Source: Escherichia phage vB_EcoM_Lh1B
Direction: 5' to 3' (one strand)
Length of the DNA stretch: 64,000 nucleotides
Sequence record: OK428535.1
In this document: positions 3,963 through 51,065 of the stretch, one piece after another
How positions within the stretch are numbered: the first letter of the stretch is position 1
Layout: every line of letters begins with the position of its first letter
Translations under genes and position numbers: made by a program
Notes under the pieces: generated by a model
Database searches by the model: none
Seen by the model: the letters and a program-made list of their open reading frames with translations, nothing else
Told to the model about the DNA's origin: nothing

Positions 3963-6131
3963 ATGTCCTACACTCCTGATTTAGTGGCGACCNTGATTCG
4001 GTCGCTCAACCGTAAAAACGCGGTCGCCAAAGCAGTAGACCCCGCTAACGTTCGCCTGGTGTCCGTGGAGCATCGTGACGAAAAAACCCTAGACGTCACA
4101 CTGACAGGGGGTCCGGGGTATTCAAGTTACGGTCAAATTACGGCCCAAGTGACGAAGCAAAATATTGCTGATTATTTCGCTAAGGTTAAGTTGGATGCCA
4201 TTCCCACCTGTGCATCCATCCACGAGCTGTTGCCGCATTTAGACACTCTACTAGGGATTACCTTTTTAACCGACGACTTTGAAGACCTGCCTATCACTTG
4301 GACAAACAATGCTGCGCGCATCACGTTCCAGGCGAAACAGACAAGTCTTATCTGGTACGGCAGCCAAACGCTAGATGTGATAAACGGTGACGTGGATATC
4401 AACACTGTCTACACTGTTACCAATATCATTCTCACGCTAAAGGCTGCGAATAAACAGCAGTGGATTAACTTCTACTCTAATGCAGCCAAACGGATCGTGG
4501 ATCTTGATAAAGTCGATGTCAGCGCCCCGATGTCCCCGGAGGATATAGGCCAAACCTCTGCGTATAACAGCGTCGTGGCTTTGACCGCTAGACCGGGGAG
4601 CGGGATGTTTGGAACGAAGTATGTGTTCTTCTCACGTAACAAACTCGAGACATATGCAGGCAAAACCACATACGTCCCGGATGATTTCACCGGTAGCCTG
4701 CACGATGCTCTGGCCATCGAGACACTCGGCATTCGGAGCGTTTTTGATGTAAACGAAATTGCTCCTGTAGAGAACCTGGCAGGCGAGTGGCCGAGACAAG
4801 TGCAATTGGCACCCGTAGAGGGTTCGTACAAAGTCATGGGCAGCGCCACGTTGAATGTGGCACGCTATCAAGATAACGAGCAAACCCTTAACCTGAACTA
4901 CACAACTACGTCGCAAGTTTCGGACAGCTACTGGGCCACGACGTTGACCAACCATGCGGCGTGCGGGCGTTTGTTTNTTAACGTGACCGTAGANGNGGGG
5001 GNTTTNGTTTTTCGCNCCAACAACCTAAAACCGACGTTCGTTATCGACGAATTGCCGCAAATTGGCGAGGTGGTTTGGAACTTCGTTAACCGGGGAACCA
5101 TTCTTGGTCGNGGTGGTTCGGGTATGGTCTATTCTCTGCCTGCGAACACATCAGCAGACGGAGCTGACGCAATCCACATTACCGATACCTTCCGCGGCAA
5201 AGTCACCATCGAAAACTACGGCACCATCGCCGGAGGTGGGGGTGGGGGCGACTACTATGCGTTTACCACCNCCAAGNTCGGTGGAGCTGGTGGTGCGCCT
5301 CTCGGGCCAGGCGCGGCGGTACCCAGCGGCACCAATAACCGTAACGGCTTAGCTGGGTCCCGTGACAAAGGCGGTGCTACCCAGTTAGTCGTCGCACAAT
5401 TTACCGGCTACCAGAGTCGCNACTATGGCGGTCCTGGTGGCGATTGGGGCCAGCCGGGACGATATACAGCGTTCGAGCAATGGAACACCCCGGCTACCGG
5501 CTCGCCGGTCTATGTCTACGGTCGTGAAGACGGGATGTCATGGACTCGCCCTGGGATGGCAGGCGAAGCCGTCGGTGGGAATAAAAGTATCGTCAACNGG
5601 GTATCCNTCGNAACGGGGAAACCNAATTTCACCNACGAGTACCAANAGTTCCNCNNCNACCNCNCAGATTTAGATNCCAACCGATTGGCCAGTGCGGATG
5701 GGATAGATAAAGTCACCGACCCAACCAAACCTGTAGTTGTGGAGTTCTTAGGTACGATTATTTCAGGTACGCTNTTCAAAAAGCAAAACATACCCGGCGG
5801 TTTGGTGGGAACACCATACGGCGATGCTGTAGCCAACTTACCGAGCACCACATTGTTTGGTATCATGGCACACTGTGTATCGGAGTTTGATATTGTGCAC
5901 GACACTTGGCGTTACAACCGTGCGGTAATGTTCACCCTAAAACCCNCNCCTACCGGGGCGATTGGCCTCGCTGTGGAACGCAACCGGGTGAAATCGGCTA
6001 CCAGTAGTACACCGGTGGAGAGGTTCTATGTCGATCGCTTCGTGTATTACGATGCGTATCTCGGTAAAATGATGGAATGTAATCCGTATACCAAATCTGC
6101 CCCTAAACCGTGGGTGCGGCCAACGATATGA
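3963..6131 (+). CDS. putative tail fibre protein with Gly-rich repeats
   Basis: 722-aa ORF with poly-Gly/GGxGG stretches (GGGGGGDYY..GGAGGAPLGPGA) typical of fibre shafts; shares its C-terminal module with CDS 2629-3948; contains n-runs. Confidence 0.65.
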   Translation: MSYTPDLVATXIRSLNRKNAVAKAVDPANVRLVSVEHRDEKTLDVTLTGGPGYSSYGQITAQVTKQNIADYFAKVKLDAIPTCASIHELLPHLDTLLGITFLTDDFEDLPITWTNNAARITFQAKQTSLIWYGSQTLDVINGDVDINTVYTVTNIILTLKAANKQQWINFYSNAAKRIVDLDKVDVSAPMSPEDIGQTSAYNSVVALTARPGSGMFGTKYVFFSRNKLETYAGKTTYVPDDFTGSLHDALAIETLGIRSVFDVNEIAPVENLAGEWPRQVQLAPVEGSYKVMGSATLNVARYQDNEQTLNLNYTTTSQVSDSYWATTLTNHAACGRLFXNVTVXXGXXVFRXNNLKPTFVIDELPQIGEVVWNFVNRGTILGXGGSGMVYSLPANTSADGADAIHITDTFRGKVTIENYGTIAGGGGGGDYYAFTTXKXGGAGGAPLGPGAAVPSGTNNRNGLAGSRDKGGATQLVVAQFTGYQSRXYGGPGGDWGQPGRYTAFEQWNTPATGSPVYVYGREDGMSWTRPGMAGEAVGGNKSIVNXVSXXTGKXNFTXEYQXFXXXXXDLDXNRLASADGIDKVTDPTKPVVVEFLGTIISGTXFKKQNIPGGLVGTPYGDAVANLPSTTLFGIMAHCVSEFDIVHDTWRYNRAVMFTLKPXPTGAIGLAVERNRVKSATSSTPVERFYVDRFVYYDAYLGKMMECNPYTKSAPKPWVRPTI

Positions 6132-6190
6132 TTATCGTAATTTAACGNGGAACTTGNCGGGTTTAAANCCNGAANANAACCCNNNCCCNN

Positions 6191-6218
6191 TTCCCCNCGG
6201 GGAAGNGGNTTTNTTTTT
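6191..6218 (+). terminator. probable terminator (low-quality sequence)
   Basis: ttcccc-n-cggggaa hairpin followed by a T-run, inside an n-rich patch. Confidence 0.3.
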
Positions 6219-6836
6219 ATGACCCTATCAACTCAGGAGGTTATCGTGGTCGATCGTTGGAGTAAAGAGGGCATTATTCGTGCCAAAGTAAACATCGAAG
6301 CCGGTTACGTTAATAACCCGAAAGATTTGGGCAAAGCAACGAACCGCGGTGTCACCGAACTCACTGCGCGAGAATATGGCTATAAAGGGGATATGCGTGA
6401 CCTGAGCTTAGAAATCGCGTTAGACATTTACAACAAGCTCTGGTGGCAGCGGATGCGTTTAGACCAGATTATGAAAATGAATGTCCTGCTAGCTGACCGA
6501 ATGTTTGATTTCGGCATCAACGCAGGACGCGGTAACTGTATCAAGTCCCTGCAACGTATTCTGAACGTATTAAACCGCCAGGGTAAACTATACGATGATA
6601 TCGATGCCGATGGTGGTATCGGGCCACGTACGTTAACAGCGTTAGAAGGCTTCATCAAAGCCCGTGGGGAAGAGGGCCTGAATCGACTGATGTTCGCTTT
6701 AACCTGTCATCAGGTTGCGTATTACACGGAAATCAGTGAAGGGCGTGAGGATAACGAAGAGTTTACTTACGGCTGGTATGGCCGCGTCTATCAGGAAATG
6801 CCAGACTACGTGGCTAAGTTGGGGATGTGCAAATGA
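6219..6836 (+). CDS. endolysin: GH108-type N-acetylmuramidase with PG_binding_3 domain
   Basis: N-terminal EAGYVNNPKDLGKATNRGVTE matches the GH108 EGGYvnDP..GG.T..GIT signature; C-terminal DADGGIGPRTLTAL matches the PG_binding_3 DG.iGp.T..AL motif; no signal peptide or TM segment. Confidence 0.8.
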   Translation: MTLSTQEVIVVDRWSKEGIIRAKVNIEAGYVNNPKDLGKATNRGVTELTAREYGYKGDMRDLSLEIALDIYNKLWWQRMRLDQIMKMNVLLADRMFDFGINAGRGNCIKSLQRILNVLNRQGKLYDDIDADGGIGPRTLTALEGFIKARGEEGLNRLMFALTCHQVAYYTEISEGREDNEEFTYGWYGRVYQEMPDYVAKLGMCK

Positions 6837-7024
6837 AACAGAATTGGTTTGCTGCCTTAATGAAAGCTATCTGGCGCGCCCTTGTTTTTGCCNNAAGGAG
6901 AAAACGAAATGACCCACCGTCCAACTCCGCCTAAGTTCCCCGAAGTACAAACCGTTCCGGAAACGTATTACGATTCTGGGTTCTTCAAACTATTACGCGC
7001 GATCTTCTGTCGGAGGGTAAAGCC

Positions 7025-7117
7025 ATGCAATACGACAACGACGACTGGCCGAAAGGCTTAATGCCCATTTTACTGGGATTAATGGTCCTCACGATGCTCG
7101 TGCGTTATATGACGTGA
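7025..7117 (+). CDS. tiny single-TM peptide (30 aa)
   Basis: ATG preceded by GGAGGG; MQYDNDDWPKGLMPILLGLMVLTMLVRYMT has one hydrophobic helix; below the ORF-track length cut-off. Confidence 0.3.
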   Translation: MQYDNDDWPKGLMPILLGLMVLTMLVRYMT

Positions 7118-7124
7118 GGTCAGT

Positions 7125-7766
7125 ATGGAAGCACTTAAGTATAAGTTGTTAGAGAAGCCGTGGTTTATCCTCACGGATGATTTCCATTTCGAGTTTACGT
7201 TGCGCAGCCTCTATCGTGAGCACACCGGAATGGATGCGATGGTAGCATTAACAGGTGTACACCCGGATACTCCGTTATGGGTAACGGTACCGAAAGGATT
7301 TGTAACGGACCTGGCAAGCATTCCAGAAGCGNTNCNNCCTATCCTNCNNCCGGANGGGCCTTGGGCCGCNGCCNCTTGTGTGCATGATTTGTTTTACCAG
7401 AAACGTTCATCGGGGGTCTTGTACCCTGACACTGTCGAAGGTAATCTATCTCGTGCATGTGACAAAACATTCGCTGACCTGATGTTCTTACGTATCATGG
7501 AGGCATTAGGCGTTGACACCTTTATTCGTAAGTCCTTCTACCATGCCGTTCACGAGTTTGGTTGGCCGTCCTATGTAGACGATAACTCTAAGGTGGTTTA
7601 TAGCCGGCCGGTAGAAAAGACGTTGTCCTATAATCGCAACTACCTGTTCTTTAGAACGTCGCGTACGTTAGCGATTCCTGAACACGAACGTGTTGACATT
7701 ACTAATGGGCAACCGGTAAACGTGCAGTATTTGAATATCAAACGTGCGTTCCTGACTACCCCTTAA
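7125..7766 (+). CDS. hypothetical protein (DUF1353-like motif?)
   Basis: 213-aa ORF with GAGG RBS; motif VTDLASIP...CVHDLFY resembles the DUF1353 signature from memory. Confidence 0.55.
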   Translation: MEALKYKLLEKPWFILTDDFHFEFTLRSLYREHTGMDAMVALTGVHPDTPLWVTVPKGFVTDLASIPEAXXPIXXPXGPWAXAXCVHDLFYQKRSSGVLYPDTVEGNLSRACDKTFADLMFLRIMEALGVDTFIRKSFYHAVHEFGWPSYVDDNSKVVYSRPVEKTLSYNRNYLFFRTSRTLAIPEHERVDITNGQPVNVQYLNIKRAFLTTP

Positions 7767-7775
7767 GGAGAGAAA

Positions 7776-8291
7776 ATGTTTCATCCGAATCCTGCCAACT
7801 TCGCGTTAAAAGAGTTGATGCCGCAGGAGTACATCGCGAAATATGGTGAAGGTGCTATTCGTTTCCTTAATCCGTTACTGCTAATCTCGCTCCAACAGAT
7901 TCGTAATCGTTTTGGGCGGATGGTGATTTTAACCAGTTCCCAGCAACAGCGTAGTCTGCGTACCCTGCAGTTCTTTATTAATCAAGAGAAACCAAAGGGT
8001 GGAGATTGGCAAACTCGTGCAAACAAACTGTACGCCGAATCAGGCAGTATGCATAAATTCGGTAATGCGTTTGATGCAACAATGCTTGATACACCGTTGC
8101 AGAAAGTACACGACTATATTGCCGCGAACCCTAACGAGTTTCCGTTTATTCACTTTATCGAGTGCGATATTACCTGGCTGCATGTTGACGTACGCAACCA
8201 GCCTGATATCACCTTCTGGTCACCGACACGTGGTACCGTTAAAGTGGTTAAGCAACAACCCATCGATTGGAGCAAGCTAGTTAAAATCTAA
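7776..8291 (+). CDS. peptidase M15-family (Peptidase_M15_3-like) cell-wall peptidase
   Basis: AAGGAG RBS; motifs SMHKFGNAFDAT and WLHVDVRN match the Zn-binding S.H..G.A.D / HVDVR signature of M15 D-Ala-D-Ala / L-Ala-D-Glu peptidases. Confidence 0.6.
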   Translation: MFHPNPANFALKELMPQEYIAKYGEGAIRFLNPLLLISLQQIRNRFGRMVILTSSQQQRSLRTLQFFINQEKPKGGDWQTRANKLYAESGSMHKFGNAFDATMLDTPLQKVHDYIAANPNEFPFIHFIECDITWLHVDVRNQPDITFWSPTRGTVKVVKQQPIDWSKLVKI

Positions 8292-8383
8292 GCCACTTTA
8301 ATCAAAAGTAATATCATTTATCATTTGATACGTTTAATGCGCTTAGAGAGCGTTACAGAGCGTTTTAGAGGGTAAATAAAGCC

Positions 8384-8414
8384 CTTACCCACTCCCCTTA
8401 CGGGAGTGGGTAAG
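8384..8414. terminator. bidirectional rho-independent terminator
   Basis: Stem CTTACCCACTCCC / GGGAGTGGGTAAG with A-rich 5' and T-rich 3' flanks, between convergent genes. Confidence 0.6.
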
Positions 8415-8416
8415 CA

Positions 8417-8908
8417 TTATTTATTTTCTTCTAACGGAACAATCGTAATCGGAGTAGGAACTTCACCGATAAACCCGCTGCTGCAGCGAAAGAATGTCAT
8501 CCCTTTACCTTCGCCGGTATACGGGTTCACATCCGAAAAAGAATAAGTGGGGCTATCGTTTACGGTTTTATTAATACGGTAATAACGCTCACCTGTGGTG
8601 GTGTTAACATTCCCGTCGATTTTGCCGATCACGTCTTTAAACATCATCGGTGACTCTAGTTTGCCACCGTCCCACGCTGCTACCCAGTTTGCACCCACAT
8701 CCATTACTGTTACTGACCGCGGCATCATTTGTAGGTTGTCCAGTACCGGACGGTAGTCTACAAACTTCTCCTGCGTCCCTGTGCATGTATAAATCACCAA
8801 GTCGTGATTCTTTACTGGTGTGGCGCTAAATTGTCCTATGTTGCTTGGCGACTGAACACAACCGGCCAACAGGTTTATAATCGCGAATACGATAAATAGA
8901 CGTTTCAT
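8417..8908 (-). CDS. lipoprotein (possible superinfection-exclusion or receptor-masking protein)
   Basis: Signal peptide with lipobox MKRLFIVFAIINLLAGC; AGGA RBS. Confidence 0.65.
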   Translation of the reverse strand: MKRLFIVFAIINLLAGCVQSPSNIGQFSATPVKNHDLVIYTCTGTQEKFVDYRPVLDNLQMMPRSVTVMDVGANWVAAWDGGKLESPMMFKDVIGKIDGNVNTTTGERYYRINKTVNDSPTYSFSDVNPYTGEGKGMTFFRCSSGFIGEVPTPITIVPLEENK

Positions 8909-9032: not shown

Positions 9033-9581
9033 ATGGCAGTCATCTCTGCAAAAGACCAACTCGTCGCGCTGTTTAATGCTGCAAACAGCGGACTGTCTAG
9101 TCCGTTAACTACTGCTGACGTTACATTCGGCGCTGTTGCTGACTATTCACCAGCAGATTCTGGAGACACTCGCAACTCCAAACTCACCATCACTGCCACC
9201 GCGGAATCCGCTAACTTTACGGGCGAGAAAGAGCTGCACTATACCCGCCTCGATTCATTGAACATCATCGGTGCGAAAGCAGTTACCGCTGACCAGGCAG
9301 AATGGGATACCGATGAAGAAGTGCTTGCTTTTGTCAACGCAGATCTAATTGCCGCCGGTAAAACGGAAGATGCGTTTGCATTGTCTGAACTCACCATTTC
9401 ACGCGAGGACGGCGACAGTGGTGAGAAAATCATCACTGTTATGGTGAAAGAAGGCCACATTAAATACCAGCCTGCCAGCCTTGCAGTTTATACTGTAACG
9501 CAGCCAATCGTTAAAACTGACCTGAGCACCACCAACGGTGAACTAGACGGATTCGTTTCACAAAACAACGTTAGTATGTAA
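9033..9581 (+). CDS. hypothetical protein sharing a C-terminal motif with the first CDS
   Basis: 182-aa ORF; C-terminus DLSTTNGELDGFVSQ is paralogous to the TNGELDGFQ end of CDS 2-634. Confidence 0.55.
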   Translation: MAVISAKDQLVALFNAANSGLSSPLTTADVTFGAVADYSPADSGDTRNSKLTITATAESANFTGEKELHYTRLDSLNIIGAKAVTADQAEWDTDEEVLAFVNADLIAAGKTEDAFALSELTISREDGDSGEKIITVMVKEGHIKYQPASLAVYTVTQPIVKTDLSTTNGELDGFVSQNNVSM

Positions 9582-9661: not shown

Positions 9662-10333
9662 TTACATGCCGAGTGACTCGGACAATGTTTTTAATCCGGT
9701 GTAATCGCGCTTTTCAGCTAACTCACGGATTTGGCGTTTGTTATCTGCCATTGCTGAGTGCAACACTTGGTCACGTGCAACAATAGCGGCCAGCAACGCT
9801 TTACATTGGGCTACTGTAAACGGACTGTGCTTAGTATTCAGCGTATCGAGCCAGTATTCTGGTGCGGTATCTGCCTGAATGTATTGACCGAGGATGGTAC
9901 GCGACGATTCATCGGCTTGAAAGTGACTACCTTCAAACTCGATATAACCATGGCGCTCATCTTCGTAGCGGTGGTCGAGTTCCAACAGCATCTTCTGCAC
10001 GTCTTCGTAAATGTAACGTGCGGTAGATTTCAGATTCCCGCGAATTTCGTCGAGGTCAATCTCCAGCACATTAGCAATAAACTCTTTCGTGCGTTTCAAT
10101 GTGAAGTTAGCTTCAATCTCCGACATCTCATACAGCTTCATGCGTGCCAGGGCTTCTTTATCAGACATCCCTTCGATGAGATGGTAATGGAGTAATGCAC
10201 AAAATCCGGTACGACCCTGATCCTGCGCACCGATTCGTTCCATGAAATTACCGTGACGATCAATCGGCAAATCACGCTGGAAATAACNGGCGCGGATCTC
10301 TTCGTTCGTTAAGCTTTTGTCAGTAACAGACAT
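9662..10333 (-). CDS. hypothetical protein, last gene of the rSAM/Cys-peptide operon
   Basis: 223-aa ORF with GAGGAGG RBS; overlaps the upstream gene by 25 nt. Confidence 0.55.
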   Translation of the reverse strand: MSVTDKSLTNEEIRAXYFQRDLPIDRHGNFMERIGAQDQGRTGFCALLHYHLIEGMSDKEALARMKLYEMSEIEANFTLKRTKEFIANVLEIDLDEIRGNLKSTARYIYEDVQKMLLELDHRYEDERHGYIEFEGSHFQADESSRTILGQYIQADTAPEYWLDTLNTKHSPFTVAQCKALLAAIVARDQVLHSAMADNKRQIRELAEKRDYTGLKTLSESLGM

Positions 10334-10875
10334 TCGTCCTCCTCAATCAGGCCAAGTTCTAACAACAAACCGAAGTCCAGCATCTGGAAGTCCTGATCGA
10401 GGTTACCGGCCCACAACAGAGAAATGTTGTGTTGCTCTTCTTCTTCCAACTGCGGGAGCAGGTGTTCTTCGAAGATTTGACGTTCTGTGTAATAAGCGTC
10501 AACCGGGTTATTGGAGCGTAAGTTACGAATACGCATCCGCGGGAATGACAAGCCCAATGCCACTAAACTTTCAGGACTGGCTTCATCAATAGAGTGACGT
10601 AGCAGTTCGATTTTGTGGCGTGGGTATGCAAGCAGTCGCTTCTCAAAGCCAGGGTTGCGCTTTTCGATTTCCGCGACAGACTCGTGTCCTTTCTCAACGC
10701 AGTAGACCGGGATCATCACATTCAGCCCGTATTTAATCAACAGGCTTTGGATTTCATCAGTGAAGTCTTCCCCTGCCACAATTGCGTGCACATTGTACAG
10801 CTTGCTTTTGCGCAGGAAGCGATCGACCAAGTGCAGTTTACGCTTCGTAAAATTGTGAATCAGTATTGACTTCAT
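10309..10875 (-). CDS. hypothetical protein (start uncertain)
   Basis: ORF 10309-10953; most plausible start is the ATG at 10875 (MKSILIHNF...) with GGAG RBS; overlaps the rSAM/SPASM gene. Confidence 0.5.
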   Translation of the reverse strand: MKSILIHNFTKRKLHLVDRFLRKSKLYNVHAIVAGEDFTDEIQSLLIKYGLNVMIPVYCVEKGHESVAEIEKRNPGFEKRLLAYPRHKIELLRHSIDEASPESLVALGLSFPRMRIRNLRSNNPVDAYYTERQIFEEHLLPQLEEEEQHNISLLWAGNLDQDFQMLDFGLLLELGLIEEDECLLLTKA

Positions 10876-12166
10876 TCTGGGCTCCGTTTTGTAATTTTTC
10901 TGCTTCGGCACGTTGGCGTACACAACGTGAACAATAGCACATGGATTTATCATGCAAATCTGATGCGCGAGTCGTACCAGTTTTCTGATACCAATATTCC
11001 GCCGCCATCAGCTTCGCAGTAGTCCAACCACACTGACGACGCTCGGCGTGATACGCTTTACGGTCTTCCAGTGTACCTTCACCGTTTTCGTACGATGCTG
11101 CTGCGCAGCTACCGCAGCTGTGTTTCATCGGACACCCTAAACAAGTTTCTGGGTAGTTGGTGTACTGCGTTTGAATCTCTTCTAACAGCTTACCGCCGTC
11201 CAGGCTCACAAACTCACGACCGACCAGTTCCGCTACAGCAGAGCGGGAAGTTACCGTGGACATGAAACGGTTACAACCGTAAATCTTGCGATCAAAGCCG
11301 AGACAGGTCATGTGCGTCAACGTACCGCAGTACGGTTTCAGGCGTTCTGGGTCGAGACGAACAGAGTCGTCATGTAAGAGTTTGTCACGCCAATCCGGGT
11401 CCCAAGTTGCCATAAAGTTCAGGCCATCCGGGATGATGTGCGTAATCGTGTTACGCGGGTTGGTGTGCAGACCCTTCTCAATCCAGTAGTCCATCACGTC
11501 CATCATCTGGTTCGCGATATCCAACGCCATATGGCGCGGCAGGATATCTTCGTACGTCACGTTACCAGAAATGGTACCACCGCCGGACATGTCAATTAAC
11601 GATTTCATGCTGGCGGCATAGTGCGGCAATGTATCGATCGTAAACGTCGCCTTTACGCCCAGTTCAGCGATGCCAACACTCTTCAGATAATTGTAACCGC
11701 GTACCGCAGCTTCGTACGACCCTTCACGCGTCGTGGTAAAGATACGATATTTGTCATGGACTTCAGGTAAACCATCGATGGAGACCCCAATAGACAGTTT
11801 GTCTTTCCAGCGCTCGATAATTTCTTTGTTCAGCGGACGGTCCAGAAGCGTACCGTTCGTGGAGATACTGAACATATACGGGCGATTGTGTTCTGCGCAT
11901 AACTTCTCTGCGGTTTCAAAGGCCGCCAAAAGAAGTTTAGGCTGCATGAACGGCTCACCACCGATGATATCGATGATGACTTCAACGTTCGGGATATCTT
12001 TATCACGCTCGAAACAAGCGTGGATAAAATCAATCACGTCTGCTACTTTGTTGTTACGCGGATATTTACGCTCGTAGCAGTATTCGCAGTCCAGGTTACA
12101 TGACAAGTTAGTCACAACCTGATACGTGCGTGGTGTGTACTGGATTTGCTGTTCGTTATTACTCAT
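10838..12166 (-). CDS. radical SAM enzyme with SPASM-type C-terminal Cys cluster (anSME/peptide-maturase-like)
   Basis: CNLDCEYC (Cx3Cx2C) at residues 23-30; C-terminal CLGCPMKHSCGSC plus further Cys residues typical of SPASM auxiliary Fe-S domains. Confidence 0.8.
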   Translation of the reverse strand: MSNNEQQIQYTPRTYQVVTNLSCNLDCEYCYERKYPRNNKVADVIDFIHACFERDKDIPNVEVIIDIIGGEPFMQPKLLLAAFETAEKLCAEHNRPYMFSISTNGTLLDRPLNKEIIERWKDKLSIGVSIDGLPEVHDKYRIFTTTREGSYEAAVRGYNYLKSVGIAELGVKATFTIDTLPHYAASMKSLIDMSGGGTISGNVTYEDILPRHMALDIANQMMDVMDYWIEKGLHTNPRNTITHIIPDGLNFMATWDPDWRDKLLHDDSVRLDPERLKPYCGTLTHMTCLGFDRKIYGCNRFMSTVTSRSAVAELVGREFVSLDGGKLLEEIQTQYTNYPETCLGCPMKHSCGSCAAASYENGEGTLEDRKAYHAERRQCGWTTAKLMAAEYWYQKTGTTRASDLHDKSMCYCSRCVRQRAEAEKLQNGAQNEVNTDSQFYEA

Positions 12167-13073
12167 TGTTCGCCGCCCGTTTACGCTTAGCAGAAATTAC
12201 ACGGTTGATGTAGTTATACGCATCAACGCCGATAGAACGCGCCAGGCGATTACAGCCGACTTCCAATATCTCTGGGGCGTTCTGAATTTGCTCCTGCGTA
12301 CCGTCGGCGTTAAGCCACAGCACTTCACTGCACGTGTTGCACTCGGTATCGAACATTTTACTGATCGCAAGCCCACATTCAGAATCGTTCTGCATGTTAA
12401 GGCGTTCGATATTGTCGAGTATTTTCCAATACCCGTACATGAAGTTCATGACGTGGTCTGGCGATAACGGTTTCGGCATCATCGCATCAAACAACAACGA
12501 CACACCACCTGGACGGTAATGATAGATTGCTCGGTGCAGCTCGATGAAATCTTCGTACCAGCGTTTATCGCCTAACTGGTCACGCGTCATCACACCCCAG
12601 GTGTAATAATTGTCCAGCTCGTACAGCACTTCCAGCGCTTCGTGATTACCACCGTTTACAAAGTTCATAAACGGACGTTCCGACTTCTTGTAGCCGTCAA
12701 TGGACACAAAGATAAGGTCGAACTGTTTCAGCAACGGCAGATGTGATTTACGCATCTTTAAACCGTTGGTGTACATGTGATGACGGAGGTTCGGATGAGA
12801 CTCCTTCAACTCGTTCACGAAGTCTTCAATCTTACGCTGCGCTAACAGCGGCTCACCGCCCGTCCAATGAATCTCACCGATATCCGGATTCTTCTCTAAA
12901 ATCGAGAGAATCTCTTCACGTTGAAACTCACGAGAAGTATCTTCTCTATCCATGTAATAAGCCCCTCCACAGAAGCTACAGTCTAAGTTACACTTAGAAG
13001 TTGCGACAACCGACAGAATTGACGGTTTGTCGTACAGTTCAGACGAGATCCTGGATTCTACTTGATCTGTCAT
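12159..13073 (-). CDS. radical SAM enzyme (second, shorter)
   Basis: CNLDCSFC Cx3Cx2C motif near the N-terminus; C-terminal ECNTCSE...GCN partial Cys cluster; stop overlaps the start of the downstream rSAM gene by 8 nt. Confidence 0.75.
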   Translation of the reverse strand: MTDQVESRISSELYDKPSILSVVATSKCNLDCSFCGGAYYMDREDTSREFQREEILSILEKNPDIGEIHWTGGEPLLAQRKIEDFVNELKESHPNLRHHMYTNGLKMRKSHLPLLKQFDLIFVSIDGYKKSERPFMNFVNGGNHEALEVLYELDNYYTWGVMTRDQLGDKRWYEDFIELHRAIYHYRPGGVSLLFDAMMPKPLSPDHVMNFMYGYWKILDNIERLNMQNDSECGLAISKMFDTECNTCSEVLWLNADGTQEQIQNAPEILEVGCNRLARSIGVDAYNYINRVISAKRKRAANNE

Positions 13074-29552: not shown

Positions 29553-30815
29553 ATGACTACTGCTTATCAAGTGCGGGCCGACAGCGCTTTTGGCTTCTCT
29601 CGAGACACCCGAACTTGGGGAACCATCGATGTCACGCAGCCCTTAAATACCCTTTGTGCTAACTACCACTTTTTCGAAGTAGGACTAGAAGCACTAGGTG
29701 CTGAATACACCTTCTATAGCCAGTATCACCTGGCTGATTTACAAAACCGTACGGACACGTTGCAAGATTGGTTAAACACCAANNCAGGAACCCCGATTCC
29801 CACGCTTGGGAAGGGCCTNCCGAANCTCNAATTNNTTGNGGCANATTACCAGTCTATTAATGCAGATGTGCCCGTAGAAACGCACCTGTGCCCTCCTGGG
29901 TACCACTACACTCAGGACTTCAATCCTGATGATGCACACGACGTTGTTGTAGTCTGCGACGATGAGTGGAAAGAGAAATACCGTACTGGGGTACTGTACA
30001 ACATCAACGGTCAATGGGTACCGCACCAATCTGACCCAGTGGGTGTTCGCTTAACCGGCGCTGGTAACATCGTGCGGAGAGCCAACACACCCNACANCGG
30101 CNGTCTAGTGATGGCGAATATTGGTAAAGTGAAGACTTACCCCATATCCGGTTTAACGATGAACAAACTCGATACTACGCGAGATTACTATTCTTCGTTA
30201 ATGTTGACCTTACCCGATTCCATTACAGGGAAAACCGTTGGGTTCGTCATCGGGGGTATTCTGCATTGGTTGCCACCGCAGGGCTATTTCAGCGACCGTG
30301 CGATTATGCTGAGTCTGCCAAACCTTAGCGTGGCGAAGATTGTATTGGAAACCCGTCGCTATTACGATTGGGACGCCATCGGTGTAGGTGATTTAAGTAC
30401 GCCTACGTCCGTTCAACGTATTCGTAACTCAGAAACGTTAAAAGCGTTGCTGACGCACGAATCCTCGTTTATCTTTACGATAGACAACCCGTATCTCGAA
30501 AAAGAGATTCACGGAATAAGCCACAACGCTATCTGGGGCCGGTTCTATTTAAAAGACCCGACTGACCCAGATGGGAAGAAGACGCTAGGTCCTATCTTTA
30601 ACCGTATTGGTAAATGTGTAGGGTACTGGCCGACCTGGGAAGAAGGGGAGTGGGTCTTTAATACCACATTCTTCGACCGGGAAAACTTTTTNTTGGGGAA
30701 CGCACGTTGGTNTAACCAGAATTTGGNAAANGACNCNCAGGNAATNGNNGGGCCTTTCGGGGNTTGGGGTAAGCCGTTTNTTGAAATGCATCGCTACAAA
30801 GNAAGAAAAAAATAA
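29553..30815 (+). CDS. hypothetical protein
   Basis: 420-aa ORF with GAGGAA RBS, divergent from the fibre operon; n-rich at the 3' end. Confidence 0.55.
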   Translation: MTTAYQVRADSAFGFSRDTRTWGTIDVTQPLNTLCANYHFFEVGLEALGAEYTFYSQYHLADLQNRTDTLQDWLNTXXGTPIPTLGKGXPXLXXXXAXYQSINADVPVETHLCPPGYHYTQDFNPDDAHDVVVVCDDEWKEKYRTGVLYNINGQWVPHQSDPVGVRLTGAGNIVRRANTPXXGXLVMANIGKVKTYPISGLTMNKLDTTRDYYSSLMLTLPDSITGKTVGFVIGGILHWLPPQGYFSDRAIMLSLPNLSVAKIVLETRRYYDWDAIGVGDLSTPTSVQRIRNSETLKALLTHESSFIFTIDNPYLEKEIHGISHNAIWGRFYLKDPTDPDGKKTLGPIFNRIGKCVGYWPTWEEGEWVFNTTFFDRENFXLGNARWXNQNLXXDXQXXXGPFGXWGKPFXEMHRYKXRKK

Positions 30816-30823
30816 AAGGTAAA

Positions 30824-30846
30824 CCCTACTCCCAATGGGAGNAGGG
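30824..30846. terminator. bidirectional rho-independent terminator
   Basis: CCCTACTCCC-aat-GGGAGnAGGG hairpin with A-rich and T-rich flanks. Confidence 0.55.
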
Positions 30847-30877
30847 NACCTATATNTTTTTTTTGCCNGNNGGCCGA

Positions 30878-31087
30878 TTACGCGTTTACNTAATANATGG
30901 CGTTGCCGAACATTTTGTTGTTGCCGCCACAAGCGGTAACTTTAAATGCTACGCCGCCTTCAGCTTCGGCTTTCTTAGCCAGCGCTTCGGTAACTTCGGT
31001 AACGGTGCTCAGTCCAGAAACCTGAACGGTGCCTGCTTCTACCAGACCAGAAACGTCGCTGCCTGCGGTGATTTCACGAATGCTCAT
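30878..31087 (-). CDS. small protein with YdgH/BhsA/McbA (DUF1471)-like domain, no signal peptide
   Basis: 69 aa with GGAGA RBS; GTVQVSGLSTVTEVTEALAKKAEAEGGVAFKVTACGGNNKMFGNA.Y fits the DUF1471 pattern as recalled. Confidence 0.45.
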   Translation of the reverse strand: MSIREITAGSDVSGLVEAGTVQVSGLSTVTEVTEALAKKAEAEGGVAFKVTACGGNNKMFGNAXYXVNA

Positions 31088-36356: not shown

Positions 36357-36758
36357 ATGACTATCAAGAAGTTCTTACAAGCAGTAGTAGTTCTGGCCGC
36401 ATGTGGTATTGCAGCAACTTATGCTTTCGATAAGCCAGACGTGACTGAATACACATCAGCTGATTCGGATTATGGCATTGCACCGAATGAAAAACCGGAA
36501 CTGATGCGTGAGGTCGAACAGTTACAAATCTACAGACTGACGGACGGTAAGAACTGCACAGGGCTGGTTATCGCTGATAAGAAATTGAAAATGTATCAGC
36601 GGTTAATCGACATATCGTGCAATCAACCAAAAGTCACCTCGGTCAGTGTATCGCCACTGGAATTACCGAATTTGGTTGCTGTGAGCTTTTATCACAACGA
36701 TGTGCTCGTCGGTCGCATCACCCTCAATCGTGGAGATATCAAAAATGAAATGCAATAA
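36357..36758 (+). CDS. putative lipoprotein / secreted protein
   Basis: Signal peptide MTIKKFLQAVVVLAACG with lipobox-like LAAC. Confidence 0.55.
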   Translation: MTIKKFLQAVVVLAACGIAATYAFDKPDVTEYTSADSDYGIAPNEKPELMREVEQLQIYRLTDGKNCTGLVIADKKLKMYQRLIDISCNQPKVTSVSVSPLELPNLVAVSFYHNDVLVGRITLNRGDIKNEMQ

Positions 36759-37236
36759 CGTCAATCGCCNCTTGGCCAAAGTGGTGCTTTTTACTGTGCT
36801 GTTGATGGCAGTTGTTGTTGGGCTACGGATTTCTAAGGCACGCGCTGACGAATTCAGCGGGTTCCAGGGCAGTATTAACGGCAGCATTCCAGCATATACC
36901 CGCACCATCAATCTTAATGATAAGCCGTTCTGGTGCAATGCGCGTAAGCTGCTTAAGAAACAGTGTCGTGTAGTTGACATATCCTTCAACGGTCGTGTCG
37001 CTATCGTACACCGTCCTGGCGATAAAGATTGCCCAGGTGGTTGGTGGGGTGCAGTCGACCGTCACAATGGTGACGCGTTATGGCTTATCCCTAATCGTGA
37101 TGAACTATCAGTGGAGAAAATTTGCAGCAAAGATTTCAGGGCCGGTTTTGTACAGCGACCGGATACCAAAACTCTGGCCTCCATCGCTATGTACTACGGT
37201 ATGGAAACCATCAAAACAATCGACTATTCAGAATAA
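36745..37236 (+). CDS. secreted Cys-containing protein (paralog family member A)
   Basis: ATG at 36745 with GGAGA RBS; signal peptide; PFWC-x-C motif shared with 37259-37669. Confidence 0.55.
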   Translation: MKCNNVNRXLAKVVLFTVLLMAVVVGLRISKARADEFSGFQGSINGSIPAYTRTINLNDKPFWCNARKLLKKQCRVVDISFNGRVAIVHRPGDKDCPGGWWGAVDRHNGDALWLIPNRDELSVEKICSKDFRAGFVQRPDTKTLASIAMYYGMETIKTIDYSE

Positions 37237-37258
37237 CTCAAAAAATTGAGGTACTATT

Positions 37259-37669
37259 ATGAAACATTTTTTATTACCAGTTTTACTTGCTACTCTGGCC
37301 ATTAGCTTCTTCGCTCGCGCTGGAAGTATCGAGTTACCAAAAGTTGTTAACGATCACGAATACGGCGGGCCGTTCTGGTGCCAGAACTCTGACGTACAAG
37401 GCGGTAGCTGTCAGATCGTTGCGATGTCCGATAACAACCGTTACCTGTTAGTGAAAACGATGGGCGGTGTCGCATGTGGCGACCCTGAATACGGGGTTAT
37501 TAACATGGCAACAGGTCAGGCCGAATCCATGAACTACAATGATAACCAAGCCTGCAGTGGTGAAGCCGTTGCTGAGTTTACTCGCGACCCAGGTGATAAT
37601 GCCCTGACGGTTATCATGTACGACCCTACGATTAAGAAAAACGTGGGCATCAATAAACTCGACTTTTAA
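37259..37669 (+). CDS. secreted Cys-containing protein (paralog family member B)
   Basis: Signal peptide MKHFLLPVLLATLAISFFARA; GGPFWCQNSDVQGGSC motif. Confidence 0.6.
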   Translation: MKHFLLPVLLATLAISFFARAGSIELPKVVNDHEYGGPFWCQNSDVQGGSCQIVAMSDNNRYLLVKTMGGVACGDPEYGVINMATGQAESMNYNDNQACSGEAVAEFTRDPGDNALTVIMYDPTIKKNVGINKLDF

Positions 37670-37682
37670 GTAAGGAAACAAC

Positions 37683-38066
37683 ATGCGTGGACTTATGGGT
37701 ATTATCGCGGCGGTGTTCTTGACCGCTTCTGCTTCAGCTACAACCAGCGTAGAAGATTTACTGCCAGGCACACCGTATCAGTACAACCCGCCTTCATTCG
37801 AAGTCTGTACTGGCGACAATGGCAGATGTGAAGAAGTCAGCCGTCACGACGAGTATATCCTGGTCCACGCAAAGGGCGAGGAAACTTGTCCGGCTGGTTA
37901 CTACTTCTTGTTGAACTCAAAGGCACAAGAGATTGTGCCGGTAGAGACAATAACGTGCGACCCGACGCTTCGCGCGTCGCTCGCTTACAATACGAAAACC
38001 AAACAACGCCTCCTGGTTATTGAACAGCAAGGGGTGGTGCGTGGTTCAGTAGCGCTCGACCAGTAA
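37683..38066 (+). CDS. secreted Cys-containing protein (paralog family member C)
   Basis: Signal peptide MRGLMGIIAAVFLTASASA; similar Cys spacing (C.GDNGRC...C). Confidence 0.6.
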   Translation: MRGLMGIIAAVFLTASASATTSVEDLLPGTPYQYNPPSFEVCTGDNGRCEEVSRHDEYILVHAKGEETCPAGYYFLLNSKAQEIVPVETITCDPTLRASLAYNTKTKQRLLVIEQQGVVRGSVALDQ

Positions 38067-38076
38067 CCGAAAAGTT

Positions 38077-38100
38077 TTCAGACAGATGTTATAACGTGAG
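38077..38100 (+). promoter_or_regulatory. recurring intergenic motif (candidate promoter element)
   Basis: TTCAGACAGATGTTATAACGTGAG; variant of the CTCAGA-YAGATATTATCTA motif. Confidence 0.25.
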
Positions 38101-41984: not shown

Positions 41985-42165
41985 AGGTTGGCGCTTATGG
42001 GCTTGGTGGGGTTTCCAGTTCCTTCAGTTTGTTGTGATGGTACTGTACCTCTCCTTTTGTGCAACCGTAGTGGTTATCGCTGCGGTCGTTTATTTAGCTG
42101 CTGCTCTTAAAGAACGTCTGTTCGACACGCGTTGTGAGTGGCGAGATATGGGGGAACGGACATGA
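41974..42165 (+). CDS. small membrane protein (63 aa)
   Basis: One long hydrophobic segment FVVMVLYLSFCATVVVIAAVVYLAAAL; overlaps the SbcC-like stop. Confidence 0.4.
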   Translation: MHHKGWRLWAWWGFQFLQFVVMVLYLSFCATVVVIAAVVYLAAALKERLFDTRCEWRDMGERT

Positions 42166-42266
42166 TTGAAGGTATCGTATTAACCGGTATTGCACTGTGG
42201 TTGATTCGTGGTGCCTGGGGTTGGATTATCCGCACGAAAGGATGGGCGTTCCATGGCAACACGTAA
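42162..42266 (+). CDS. tiny TM peptide (34 aa)
   Basis: ATGA overlap with the upstream stop; MIEGIVLTGIALWLIRGAWGWIIRTKGWAFHGNT. Confidence 0.3.
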   Translation: MIEGIVLTGIALWLIRGAWGWIIRTKGWAFHGNT

Positions 42267-42444
42267 ACCACGTCGCTTAAAATCTTGGGNGGTTGTGGTA
42301 ATGCACACTGTAGTGTTGCTGGGTNTTTTCTTGTCTCGTGCCACNCCTGCCTTTTGGGGCTTAGTTGTTTTGGTGTTCTTAGAAGGGGTTTACTTCGGTA
42401 ATCTGTGGAGCAAGCCCCCCGNGTTTAAGGGACCCGGCTTATGA
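42253..42444 (+). CDS. small membrane protein (about 63 aa)
   Basis: ATG at 42253; two hydrophobic stretches (VVVMHTVVLLG, FWGLVVLVFLEGV); contains n. Confidence 0.35.
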   Translation: MATRKPRRLKSWXVVVMHTVVLLGXFLSRAXPAFWGLVVLVFLEGVYFGNLWSKPPXFKGPGL

Positions 42445-42572
42445 CAGTCGTGAATAGTGTCAACGCGGCGATGATTGNAACGGGTGCGTATGACGGTGCC
42501 ACATGGACAGATGTTGGTATCACGCTTATCATTTGCGCAATCGGAGCGTTTGTAGCAACATGGTTATTTTAG
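42441..42572 (+). CDS. tiny TM peptide (43 aa)
   Basis: ATGA overlap; C-terminal hydrophobic helix VGITLIICAIGAFVATWLF. Confidence 0.3.
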   Translation: MTVVNSVNAAMIXTGAYDGATWTDVGITLIICAIGAFVATWLF

Positions 42573-43018
42573 TGAAATGGGTTGGGTGTATCGTCTGTAG
42601 CCTGATACTAGGAGCGGGCGCATACGCCCTAGGCGCAATCCTTGCATTGACGCAAGGTTGGTTTTAACAGGAGGGTAATTACGAAGTGGGAGAAGTATCA
42701 TGTAACAGTGAAACAGTCTCTGATCCCGTGGTCGTGGGTTCAGGGGCGGCCGAGCCAACCCGGCGTATCGTTCTTTCGAGCGCGGGGATGGCTATAGGGT
42801 CTTCAAAGAACCTTCTAGCAGACATCGCGGAAGTCTGCGGGCCGGATGATTTTGCAGTTTCACGTACAGTCGGGGAAGACTGGCGTGGTAATCAGAAGCG
42901 CCATGAGCGAATGTGGCGACGGAAGGTTACCTCAGCATCGCGACGTTTTCAACGTCGTTGCTGATTATAGACACGGTTCCGATAGAGAACTGGTCTTCAC
43001 CTCTGGCGGTATACACCG

Positions 43019-45635: not shown

Positions 45636-46358
45636 ATGTTTCNCACCATTTTATTTCTTCTGGTAGCAGTGACCACATTCAACAGCAACGCTTCTTACCA
45701 GACCACCAGTAACAAACACCAAAAAGAATTCGTCCTTATCCAGGACCAGTTCAATGAGATTAAACCTCTCATCGTCACCGCATCTCGAAAACAAGGCGTA
45801 CATGCCGGGATGCTCGCGACCACCATTTATCGTGAATCCCGTTTTAATAAAAACGTGGGTAAGAATAAATCGAGCAGTGCTAGTAGTGTTGTCCAAATGA
45901 CGACAGGCACTAAACGCTCCATGATACGTCTGTATGGGAAACAACTTAACATCCCAAAGAATGCGGACCTTAATAAACCGAAGTATGCTGTACAGCTTGC
46001 TGCCGTTTACATGAAACACATCGAGGATCATCTGACAAAACAACTCAAACGCAAGCCGAGCACAGCCGAAATCGCTTTAGGCTATCGCTTCGGTGAGGGT
46101 GCCGCTGTTGCGATGATTAAAAAGAAATCACCGGTCGGGAAACGCTGGATGGCNNGCNACNGAAAAGACGCAGCATTCTACGGTGCGAAAATGACACCAC
46201 CGAAAGNTGAAANACNNCNGNTTNNNTTTGNGNAGGNAGNCCANGNCCAACGNGTCGCCGAACTTCAGAAAATCTGGGATACGCTGTACACCAAAATATC
46301 ACCTGCGGCCGGTACATTACTGGCAAATAACACTATCATGAAAGGAGCATTGCTATGA
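45636..46358 (+). CDS. SLT-domain lytic transglycosylase-like protein with N-terminal signal peptide
   Basis: Hydrophobic N-terminus; YRESRFNKNVG...SSASSVVQMTTGT...YAVQLAAVYMKH...ALGYRFGEG matches the ES / Q-M / AYN-G motif order of SLT domains; n-rich C-terminal part. Confidence 0.5.
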   Translation: MFXTILFLLVAVTTFNSNASYQTTSNKHQKEFVLIQDQFNEIKPLIVTASRKQGVHAGMLATTIYRESRFNKNVGKNKSSSASSVVQMTTGTKRSMIRLYGKQLNIPKNADLNKPKYAVQLAAVYMKHIEDHLTKQLKRKPSTAEIALGYRFGEGAAVAMIKKKSPVGKRWMXXXXKDAAFYGAKMTPPKXEXXXXXFXXXXXXQXVAELQKIWDTLYTKISPAAGTLLANNTIMKGALL

Positions 46359-46948
46359 CACTCGTAACACGCCCCTGGTATCCAGGTCTTAAAACAGCCG
46401 NACAAATCACCGCCAAAGACGTTTACGAACTGATTCGCGCGGGTGCGGAACACGTTCAAACCAATCCGAACTACGTTGAGCGTCCTATCGGTGAAGTCGA
46501 TGGGGAAGCTGTCGAAGCACCTGTCTACGTTGAGTACGGCGAATGGTTCGCAGAGAACCACGGTTTCTACGACGCGTTAAACGCGGCGTTTGGTGATGAC
46601 GAAGACGAAGGTATCGAATTCGACTGGAACGTTAATCTGGCGCTGATGTGGATTTGTGGTTTACGTCCAGCAATTAACGAAACCGAAGCAGGCTTCGTGC
46701 TGACGTGGCGACAGTCGGCGGGTTACGATAAAGAACTCGACTTCAAACAGGCGTATATGGATGTGTCGATTGCACTGCAGAAACTGTTCTTCGGCGATCG
46801 TGCTTTCTGCCAGCTCAGCTGGTTGACCATCCTGGAAAAACTGGCAACGTGCCACAAACTGTGGCGAGCAGAAGATGCCCCAGAACATCTTTTCGTGCTC
46901 GAATATGCAGTGGTACCGAACCAGCCGTTCTTTGAGGCCGAAGCGTAA
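46355..46948 (+). CDS. hypothetical protein
   Basis: 197-aa ORF, ATGA overlap with the upstream gene. Confidence 0.55.
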   Translation: MTLVTRPWYPGLKTAXQITAKDVYELIRAGAEHVQTNPNYVERPIGEVDGEAVEAPVYVEYGEWFAENHGFYDALNAAFGDDEDEGIEFDWNVNLALMWICGLRPAINETEAGFVLTWRQSAGYDKELDFKQAYMDVSIALQKLFFGDRAFCQLSWLTILEKLATCHKLWRAEDAPEHLFVLEYAVVPNQPFFEAEA

Positions 46949-46999: not shown

Positions 47000-47266
47000 G
47001 TGTTCGTGAAACGTTTAATAAATATTCTCTACTGGATGGAGAAACGCTATAGCCACAACATTCCGATGATGTATAGTTTGTTATTCTCTACGGTAATGTT
47101 GGTGATCGGTGCGATTGTCGCGCATCTGATGGAACTCACGTCTCCATGGGCGCAACTCTTTCTTACCATCTGGATGTTGTTCTCAGGCTACCACATACGT
47201 GGTTTCATAACCCGATTCTTTCGCTGGCGTAGTACCTGGCACGTCTTTAATTCCGACCGTAACTAG
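47000..47266 (+). CDS. small membrane protein (GTG start)
   Basis: 88 aa with two hydrophobic segments; start codon GTG. Confidence 0.45.
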   Translation: MFVKRLINILYWMEKRYSHNIPMMYSLLFSTVMLVIGAIVAHLMELTSPWAQLFLTIWMLFSGYHIRGFITRFFRWRSTWHVFNSDRN

Positions 47267-50549: not shown

Positions 50550-51065
50550 GTGAGCATGATAGCATCAGTTTTCAAACTGCTTCCATTCTTACAAATGCTG
50601 TGGGAAGCATTTAAACCGGGCGAGGGGGAGAAAGTAACACGAGCCGGGAAAATAGTGACACTAGTGATAGTGGCACTGATCGCGTTCTCTGCATTTGTCT
50701 CATACGCCTACATTGTTCAATACCACACACTGGTTAGCGTTCAATCGCGTACTCAGTATCTGGAGATATCCTATAAGGAGCTAAAAGAGAAGTCCGATCA
50801 TGGCGAAGTGGAGAACAATAAGTTGTACGATCGTCTCTTCACGTGCCTGGGTTCTCGACCGCCATATGATGGTACCAAATCTCCAACAGGAACAGGCACT
50901 GAGGCCGCGGTTCCGCCTGTANAAANCAANCCNGTAANNCCNCCGGCNCCGTTNAATCCNTCTANCCCNCCNNCCAAGAAATACCNGGCCNCTTCTCNCC
51001 CGGTAGGGTCGCAGGAGGCAAATGATTTCCGACAGGAGATTATCAGTACGCTTAATAATCCATGA
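50550..51065 (+). CDS. membrane protein with periplasmic coiled coil (i-spanin candidate)
   Basis: TM segment IVTLVIVALIAFSAFVSYAYIV followed by charged helical region (ISYKELKEKSDHGEVENNKLYDRL); n-rich C-terminus. Confidence 0.4.
   Translation: MSMIASVFKLLPFLQMLWEAFKPGEGEKVTRAGKIVTLVIVALIAFSAFVSYAYIVQYHTLVSVQSRTQYLEISYKELKEKSDHGEVENNKLYDRLFTCLGSRPPYDGTKSPTGTGTEAAVPPVXXXXVXXPXPXNXSXXXXKKYXAXSXPVGSQEANDFRQEIISTLNNP

Follow-up and report, generated by a model that had tools for sequence, protein, structure and literature searches.

We analyzed a window of 64,000 nucleotides (nt), the whole stretch under study, from Escherichia phage vB_EcoM_Lh1B (sequence record OK428535.1) and found that positions 6187–8414 form one terminator-bounded operon with six products: the predicted muramidase gp156, three products of micro-open reading frames (micro-ORFs), the DUF1353 protein gp157, and the probable peptidase gp158 (gene numbers gp155 to gp160 are those of phage SPN3US). 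With slightly better than even confidence, we read this operon as a lysis module in which the DUF1353 protein participates. A preliminary description of the sequence had reported two muralytic activities in the cluster; both predicted enzymes are there, but that account is incomplete because the DUF1353 gene is a member of the TtaP family, which are phospholipases A2 (PLA2). Probably, gp157 is the most informative gene of the cluster and not a passive spacer, and we consider the missing holin less interesting than a possible phospholipase contribution to host lysis.

Products and boundaries of the gp156–gp158 operon

As the preliminary description had proposed, gp157 is a DUF1353 protein, matching the Pfam model with an e value of 1.1e-15 and 57.4 bits (cut-off 22.5). 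DUF1353 is the TtaP family; TtaP has been shown experimentally to be a PLA2 with the catalytic residues H70, D71, and D85, and it is the only member of the family for which PLA2 activity has been measured (PMC11525133). The gp157 residues H87, D88, and D118 do not vary among 25 relatives, their equivalence to the TtaP residues being drawn from the motif. The best structural match of the predicted gp157 structure is a fungal PLA2, and the core of the model is similar to group XIV secreted PLA2. Searches of Protein Data Bank (PDB) sequences with the single sequence and with a profile gave no meaningful matches, fold comparison alone being informative, and no NCBIfam model matched. Family membership, conserved residues, and the modeled fold point to gp157 as a probable TtaP-type PLA2.

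The first gene of the operon, gp156, matches the Pfam models Glyco_hydro_108 (GH108; 7.8e-18, 65.2 bits, cut-off 21.2) and PG_binding_3 (5.3e-19, 68.6 bits, cut-off 24.6), phrog_315 "endolysin" (4e-39), and the PDB entries 6v3z (Sen1395; 1.7e-41) and 6v40 (4.5e-39), both of which we take to be TtsA-family muramidases of Salmonella. Residues 27–30 of gp156, E-A-G-Y beginning with E27, align with the catalytic-glutamate motif EGGY of both structures, with alanine in place of glycine at the second residue. A Kyte-Doolittle scan found no hydrophobic 19-mer in gp156, gp157, or gp158, and the three proteins are therefore without a signal or signal-arrest-release (SAR) sequence. The earlier call of a GH108 muramidase with a peptidoglycan-binding domain and no signal peptide thus holds, with both Pfam matches above the gathering score, and sequence similarity makes gp156 a probable endolysin of the TtsA/Sen1395 type. 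Neither gp156 nor gp157 was detected in SPN3US virions (Thomas 2016 Table S4; PMC5105663).

Against Pfam M15, gp158 itself scores 16.8 bits, below the cut-off of 23.2; however, eight of its 14 close relatives match M15_3 (best 6.8e-8) and four match M15_4. A zinc-site motif, H93-x6-D100 with H136 and D138, plus E129 and D131, is invariant in 14 sequences, and fold comparison places gp158 with the Hedgehog/DD-peptidase fold. Single-sequence and profile searches of PDB sequences gave no meaningful matches, and fold comparison alone worked; NCBIfam had no match for gp158 or for the neighboring gp159. The M15-type call made earlier is therefore upheld by fold, motif, and the matches of the relatives, although not by the Pfam score of gp158 itself, and gp158 is probably a peptidoglycan peptidase. 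An alignment (hhalign) of the gp158 family with the M15 peptidase of Caulobacter phage DMCA recovered only the motif S-x-H-x2-G-x-A-x-D at 5% probability and was not used as evidence.

The 288 bases between gp156 and gp157 hold three conserved micro-ORFs, here called a, b, and c, of 33, 50, and 30 aa (table 1). The product of ORF a is a cationic (+6) amphipathic helix with a hydrophobic moment of about 0.7; it matches phrog_25143 (3.4e-12), and phiEaH2 and Asesino carry ORF a as an annotated gene. ORF b has a conserved amphipathic core, GFFKLLRAIFxRRV, that is kept in Seoulvirus and Erskinevirus, and ORF c, which is annotated in SPLA1a, combines an acidic N-terminus with one transmembrane (TM) helix (Kyte-Doolittle score 1.68–2.58). 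Taken together, the a and b peptides have charges of +2 to +7 and hydrophobic moments of about 0.6–0.7; for ORFs b and c, neither PHROGs nor Pfam gave a match. Conservation is evident at the peptide level for ORFs a and b in Erskinevirus, at about 70% DNA identity, and for ORF c in the divergent Seoulvirus STsAS, and Machinavirus has an analogue in the form of one 38–44-aa peptide with a basic N-terminus, a DDPP motif, and one TM helix, the stop codon of which overlaps the DUF1353 start. Substitutions between relatives fall mostly at codon position 3 and least at position 2 (counts at positions 1, 2, and 3 are, e.g., [8,0,14] in ORF a, [1,1,9] and [3,0,9] in ORF b, and, in a further example from the three ORFs, [13,5,18]). 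This third-position bias in all three ORFs is the signature of translated sequence and, judged by it, the micro-ORFs are under purifying selection. The possibility that ORF a is a frameshift extension of the endolysin was rejected, as a slippery site is lacking and ATGA overlaps are commonly seen in translational coupling.

The operon is bounded by a hairpin on either side (table 1), and a hairpin scan of SPLA1a found no strong terminator inside gp156–gp158. Apart from a GAGG within the 3' arm of the upstream hairpin, gp156 has no Shine-Dalgarno-like sequence, and translation of the endolysin could be coupled to read-through or unfolding of this hairpin, the window copy of which is N-rich. Altogether, the window contains 315 N bases, scattered singly in about 60 small groups (e.g., at 4977–5948, 6148–6213, 7332–7374, 30692–30896, 46154–46401, and 50922–50998), that give rise to X residues in translations and fall, among other places, in the gp157 catalytic region and in the terminator upstream of gp156. 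Near-identical genomes do not contain these Ns, and their appearance is therefore one of ambiguity in consensus calling, as in SPFM assemblies, and not of biology; for the same reason, and because they are spread window-wide, we rejected hypervariable positions of the diversity-generating retroelement type as an explanation of the X residues. SPLA1a (window positions equal those of the SPLA1a stretch plus 2099 at the gp156–gp158 locus) and SPN3US were used as clean reference sequences.

About 33 Salmonella jumbo phages in the genus Seoulvirus (SPN3US, SPFM, SPLA, MET_P1_082_240) share 95–98% identity with region 6100–8400 of the window, and Erwinia jumbo phages share 68–72%. By this similarity, the window is part of an SPN3US-like jumbo phage (Seoulvirus) and represents ~27% of a genome of ~240 kb. 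The composition of the module differs between genera: Seoulvirus has the GH108 protein, the peptides, DUF1353, and the M15-like protein; Erskinevirus and Machinavirus have the GH108 protein, the peptide or peptides, and DUF1353; and Derbicusvirus and a metagenomic relative have DUF1353 and the M15-like protein. DUF1353 is thus the constant member across related jumbo phages, whereas the peptidoglycan hydrolase partner varies.

Among the flanking genes, gp159 is syntenic with the gp156–gp158 module in all related genera (tblastn). A minus-strand block at 9662–13000, encoding a DUF4376 protein, a small protein, and two radical-SAM proteins, is also linked to the module in all related genera with varying orientation (Machinavirus, Derbicusvirus, and the metagenomic relative L018). 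Upstream, gp155 (3963–6131) joins an N-terminal DUF7941 domain to a Gly-rich domain like that of the T4 Gp38 adhesin; gp160 (9033–9581) has DUF7941 in common with gp155 and is represented by two to three tandem paralogues in relatives. Both gp155 and gp160 are abundant in the SPN3US proteome and are retained in tailless particles (PMC5105663), so the adhesin-like protein may be a component of the head or neck instead of the tail.

Table 1. Coordinates of features of the operon, its borders, and the second candidate lysis set in the window
Feature	Position	Strand	Basis or remark
Terminator-like hairpin between gp155 and gp156	6187..6208	+	Clean SPLA1a sequence 4088-4109, offset +2099: 9-bp stem, 6 GC pairs, T-run
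gp156, predicted GH108 N-acetylmuramidase (cytoplasmic) with PG_binding_3	6219..6836	+	Pfam, PHROG, and PDB matches
Micro-ORF a, 33 aa, MKQNWFAALMKAIWRALVFAARRKRNDPPSNSA	6833..6934	+	ATGA: start overlaps gp156 stop
Micro-ORF b, 50 aa (27-31 aa in relatives)	6909..7061	+	Ribosome-binding site AAGGAG, 8 nt upstream
Micro-ORF c, 30 aa, MQYDNDDWPKGLMPILLGLMVLTMLVRYMT	7025..7117	+	GGAGG ribosome-binding site; stop 7 nt before gp157
gp157, DUF1353 protein, probable TtaP-type (group XIV-like) PLA2	7125..7766	+	
gp158, probable divergent M15/LAS-fold zinc peptidase	7776..8291	+	Fold, motif, and Pfam matches of relatives
Bidirectional terminator hairpin, 13-bp stem	8384..8414	.	SPLA1a stretch 6285-6315; closes the operon and convergent gp159
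gp159, 163-aa predicted lipoprotein, lipobox LLAGC	8417..8908	-	phrog_9559 at 1.6e-81
gp198, SLT lytic transglycosylase, with a Sec-type signal at the N-terminus (MFRTILFLLVAMTTFNSNA|S); second endolysin candidate	45636..46358	+	Pfam SLT 2.3e-6; phrog_4067
gp200, 88 aa, two TM helices, basic C-terminal tail	47000..47266	+	650 bp downstream of gp198
gp204, i-spanin-like	50550..51065	+	TM residues 35-53, then charged, helical, Pro-rich regions
gp205, o-spanin-like lipoprotein, 159 aa	51075..51554	+	Lipobox LLLTGC

Genome context of DUF1353 and the chaperone annotation

In the P22-like Pseudomonas phage AH02 (36941–39080), a holin gene is followed by genes for two membrane proteins, the endolysin, and DUF1353, and then by terS. 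The slot after the endolysin is normally that of Rz/Rz1 in lambdoid gene order, and DUF1353 takes this slot in AH02 because it lies between the endolysin and terS; a scan of the whole AH02 genome that allowed overlapping matches found no credible lipobox ORF for an o- or u-spanin lipoprotein. AH02 is unrelated to the SPN3US-like phages, and lysis genes are also found near DUF1353 in the likewise unrelated phages Bjorn (lysozyme-DUF1353-terminase), Caulobacter phage DMCA (M15 peptidase, lipoprotein, DUF1353), JD-Fnp2 (DUF1353-holin), NrS-3 (DUF1353, two small genes, lysozyme), and FNU1 (amidase two genes from DUF1353). In a survey of 25 non-redundant DUF1353 clusters from IMG/VR, lysis proteins were the largest class among immediate neighbors with a Pfam match (two lysozymes, one SLT, one amidase, and one holin).

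Several observations weigh against a lysis role for the operon. In the IMG/VR clusters, DUF4376, a fiber-assembly-type domain, is the commonest single neighbor family of DUF1353 (three matches), and tail-fiber genes are common within three genes of it; in Francisella phage KIRK, DUF1353 adjoins DUF4376 and a fiber gene, and several further contexts are uninformative. The strongest single hint for a fiber link comes from the metagenomic jumbo-phage relative L018, in which a 143-aa protein encoded directly upstream of DUF1353 (4560–4991) contains repeated NHTHT(L/S)QSLG motifs that resemble the His-x-His iron-binding repeats of tail-fiber tips. In the 25 clusters, enrichment of small TM proteins at a distance of up to two genes from DUF1353 is only weak (16/58, or 28%, vs. 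34/198, or 17%; p = 0.06), a test in which crude ORF calling inflates the background. The gp156–gp158 cluster itself is set among virion genes (gp147–155 and gp160), ORFs a and b are too weakly hydrophobic to span a membrane, ORF c has no holin-family match in PHROGs, and with spanin-like genes present in the window a phospholipase is not obviously needed. Deletion of ttaP in S. Typhi gave no envelope or secretion phenotype. Finally, 3, 0, 2, and 0 spectra of gp158 were recorded in SPN3US virions, the 3 and 2 in tailed particles and the zeros in tailless particles and in a virion RNA polymerase (vRNAP) mutant (Thomas 2016 Table 5; PMC5105663); gp158 may be a trace virion enzyme, which would fit a role in entry, but these counts are too low to rely on.

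Public annotation of gp156, gp157, and gp158 as endolysin, tail assembly chaperone, and endolysin, respectively, offers the alternative that survives best. If this convention is right, gp156 is an ordinary endolysin located by chance among structural genes, gp157 a tail-fiber assembly chaperone, and gp158 a virion-associated entry hydrolase, the holin and spanins are encoded elsewhere (gp200 and gp204/205), and the micro-ORFs are incidental. Besides the label of PHROG 1158 ("tail assembly chaperone"), such an arrangement would accommodate the virion proteins gp155 and gp160 on either side of the cluster, the detection of gp158 in tailed particles only, the recurrence of DUF4376 and fiber genes next to DUF1353, the absence of gp157 from virions, which is expected of a chaperone, and the presence of a classical-looking two-TM protein and a spanin-like pair elsewhere in the window. 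However, we found no experimental basis for the chaperone label, the sole characterized DUF1353 protein is a PLA2, and a chaperone role leaves the invariant H-D/D residues and the PLA2-like core unexplained. Placement gives a mixed picture: in the window, gp156 and the three micro-ORFs separate gp157 from the adhesin-like gp155, in one relative a fiber-like gene directly precedes DUF1353, and in AH02, Bjorn, DMCA, and JD-Fnp2 DUF1353 adjoins lysis genes and is far from fibers. Moreover, the virion assignment of gp158 is weak, as its two to three spectra are missing also from the tailed vRNAP mutant, and micro-ORFs under purifying selection would hardly be incidental. We consider the conventional annotation rather unlikely as a full account, and the genome contexts argue for a lysis association of DUF1353 as the better supported reading, although not a proven one, compared with a fiber chaperone.

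Holin and spanin candidates in the window

The absence of a classical holin nearby, reported earlier, was confirmed by a Kyte-Doolittle TM scan in which no ORF of at least 60 aa with two to three TM segments was found within about 5 kb of the cluster; the only TM segments there are those of ORF c and of the gp159 lipoprotein signal. The whole SPLA1a genome has no annotated holin and offers a short list of small membrane proteins instead, and a recent review mentions no holin in phiKZ-like jumbo phages, so phages of this kind appear usually to have no annotated holin. Homology to holin families in Pfam, PHROG, or NCBIfam was found neither for ORFs a, b, and c nor for gp200. ORF c has a single TM helix and lies inside the endolysin operon, but it is only 30 aa long. 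The non-canonical small holin suggested in the preliminary description thus has some support from three conserved micro-ORFs, one of which encodes a single-TM peptide, but not from any family match; that the micro-peptides are a holin equivalent is possible, although we hold it doubtful.

The other suggestion made there, that the lysis genes are dispersed, finds some support in this jumbo phage in gp198, gp200, and gp204/205, all of which lie in the same window, but none of these proteins has a match to a known holin or spanin family. gp198 was labeled "putative endolysin" in the original SPN3US record (JN641803). Downstream of it and ~40 kb from the gp156 operon, gp200 is the best classical-looking candidate for a holin or pinholin in the window. 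It has a sub-threshold match to DUF4231 (e value 4.7e-4, 21 bits vs. a cut-off of 24.7), which we take to be the SLATT group of two-TM pore-forming effectors; if this match is true, the holin candidate would be related to defense-system effectors. The spanin pair placed 44 kb away in the preliminary description is real as a candidate: gp204 and gp205, at 44.3 kb, are adjacent (9 nt apart) and have the TM segment and lipobox of a two-component spanin architecture. They match no spanin family in Pfam or NCBIfam and are followed by exonuclease and RNase H genes, not by a lysis cassette. Other small TM ORFs were found at SPLA1a positions 7229–7471, 77455, and 115445. At window positions 41974–42667, four overlapping tiny membrane-protein ORFs (63, 78–82, 43, and 35–54 aa) directly follow an SbcC-like gene, and at 36357–38100 four consecutive genes encode small exported proteins, several of them Cys-rich, of which one has a lipobox (VLAAC), one an N-terminal TM anchor, and two signal peptides; the latter genes are possibly a periplasmic or superinfection-exclusion cluster.

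These candidates could themselves constitute the real lysis system, with gp198 as the exported SLT enzyme, gp200 as pinholin, and gp204/205 as spanins, whereas the gp156–gp158 operon would serve remodeling of wall and membrane in the course of infection, lysis from without, or competitor killing after release, in the manner of the non-lytic, secretion-type TtsA. The Sec-type signal and SLT domain of gp198, its designation by the original authors, the holin-like topology of gp200, and the fact that TtsA and TtaP work without lysing Salmonella are all compatible with this arrangement, but neither holin nor spanin families gave a match for gp200, gp204, or gp205, the unit that begins with gp204/205 continues with genes for an exonuclease and RNase H, signal-less GH108 enzymes are typical holin-dependent endolysins (as in the name of NF040573 and in phrog_315), and we see no positive indication of a non-lytic role, all of which makes it improbable. 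Least credible, and in our judgment very improbable, is that the micro-ORFs are not genes and that their conservation reflects RNA or regulatory constraint in an intergenic leader of a cluster of three enzymes: although they are very short, are left out of several public annotations and, in the case of ORFs b and c, have no family match, this is at odds with the frame-specific third-position bias and almost invariant second position in all three, the strong Shine-Dalgarno sequences and ATGA coupling, the amino-acid motifs that survive at about 70% DNA identity, the analogous peptide in Machinavirus, and the match of ORF a to phrog_25143.

Proposed lysis pathway and known systems

If the operon is a lysis module that includes DUF1353, its six products would between them act on every layer of the Gram-negative envelope. 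At a late stage of infection, gp156, gp157, and gp158 would be made and, as we propose, accumulate harmlessly in a latent state in the cytoplasm because they have no export signal. A membrane lesion made by the TM and amphipathic peptides of the operon and/or by gp200 would then allow the enzymes to reach the periplasm, where gp156 would cut glycan strands, gp158 would cut peptide stems or cross-links, and gp157 would hydrolyze phospholipids of the inner leaflet of the outer membrane and/or of the inner membrane. The cationic peptides, which resemble antimicrobial peptides (AMPs), may assist gp157, and the envelope would rupture through these activities, with the spanin-like pair as a partner or as a redundant factor. 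A phospholipase would thus act alongside spanins or, in other phages, instead of them, and the typhoid-toxin islet would hold, as ttsA–ttaP, a domesticated copy of this muramidase–phospholipase module. More tentatively, we suggest that DUF1353 may represent a widespread, so far unrecognized class of phage lysis PLA2 that is released with the endolysin, destroys the outer (or inner) membrane, and works with spanins or replaces them, that in the SPN3US group peptides of 30–50 aa may form a minimal holin/AMP system, and that the orphan gene ttaP may be the domesticated membrane-breaching partner of TtsA.

Were gp157 a true lysis factor, a lipid-cleaving step would be added to the holin–endolysin–spanin scheme of Gram-negative lysis, it would be explained how some phages manage without spanins, AH02 being a natural test case, and the widespread "tail assembly chaperone" annotation would be corrected. 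The proposal also provides testable hypotheses for endolysin release in phiKZ-like jumbo phages without an annotated holin and for the role of TtaP in the export of typhoid toxin, which requires an activity that perturbs the outer membrane. Moreover, enzybiotic cocktails that target Gram-negative bacteria could be modeled on this natural set of a muramidase, a peptidase, a PLA2, and AMP-like peptides. Among searchable open-access papers, we found no description of a conserved muramidase–micropeptide–phospholipase(–peptidase) module that mirrors ttsA–ttaP, together with DUF1353 in the spanin slot of a spanin-less phage, and none of a lysis role for DUF1353 or of the SPN3US lysis genes.

Individual components of the operon have counterparts in known lysis systems. 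gp158 has the LAS/Hedgehog-type fold and the H-x6-D...H zinc site of M15 endolysins such as the T5 L-alanoyl-D-glutamate peptidase, Ply500, LysB4, and LysECD7. Non-spanin disruptors of the outer membrane include the "disruptin" gp28 of phiKT, a cationic AMP-like lysis protein, and LysB of mycobacteriophages, a lipid esterase that acts on the mycobacterial outer layer. ORFs a and b resemble disruptin in encoding cationic amphipathic helices, but their products are shorter (27–50 aa) and have no sequence relationship to it; likewise, gp157 would be a lipid-cleaving lysis enzyme like LysB, but as a glycerophospholipid PLA2 and not a mycolyl-arabinogalactan esterase, again with no sequence relationship.

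The lambda S-R-Rz/Rz1 cassette is similar to the operon in having a soluble cytoplasmic endolysin that depends on a membrane lesion, translationally coupled small membrane-active genes, and an outer-membrane-disrupting function downstream of the endolysin, as predicted here for gp157. Unlike lambda, the operon has no recognizable holin of 60–220 aa, its membrane components being peptides of 30–50 aa; a predicted phospholipase and no spanin occupies the downstream slot, a second peptidoglycan hydrolase is present, and the spanin-like and holin-like candidates are 39–44 kb away.

Because DUF1353 is the TtaP family and its partner is a GH108 protein, gp156–gp157 can be regarded as the phage counterpart of ttsA–ttaP of the typhoid-toxin islet. 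In both, a GH108 muramidase with PG_binding_3 is paired with a DUF1353 protein, and both proteins are without a signal sequence (PMC11525133). The H-D/D catalytic residues are kept, and gp156 matches TtsA-family structures at about 1e-41. In contrast, the phage DUF1353 protein has 213 aa and an extra C-terminal region compared with the 125 aa of TtaP, and three micro-peptides and an M15-like peptidase are encoded in addition by the phage operon. Given the context of a lytic jumbo phage, the outcome would therefore presumably be full lysis and not toxin release as with ttsA–ttaP.

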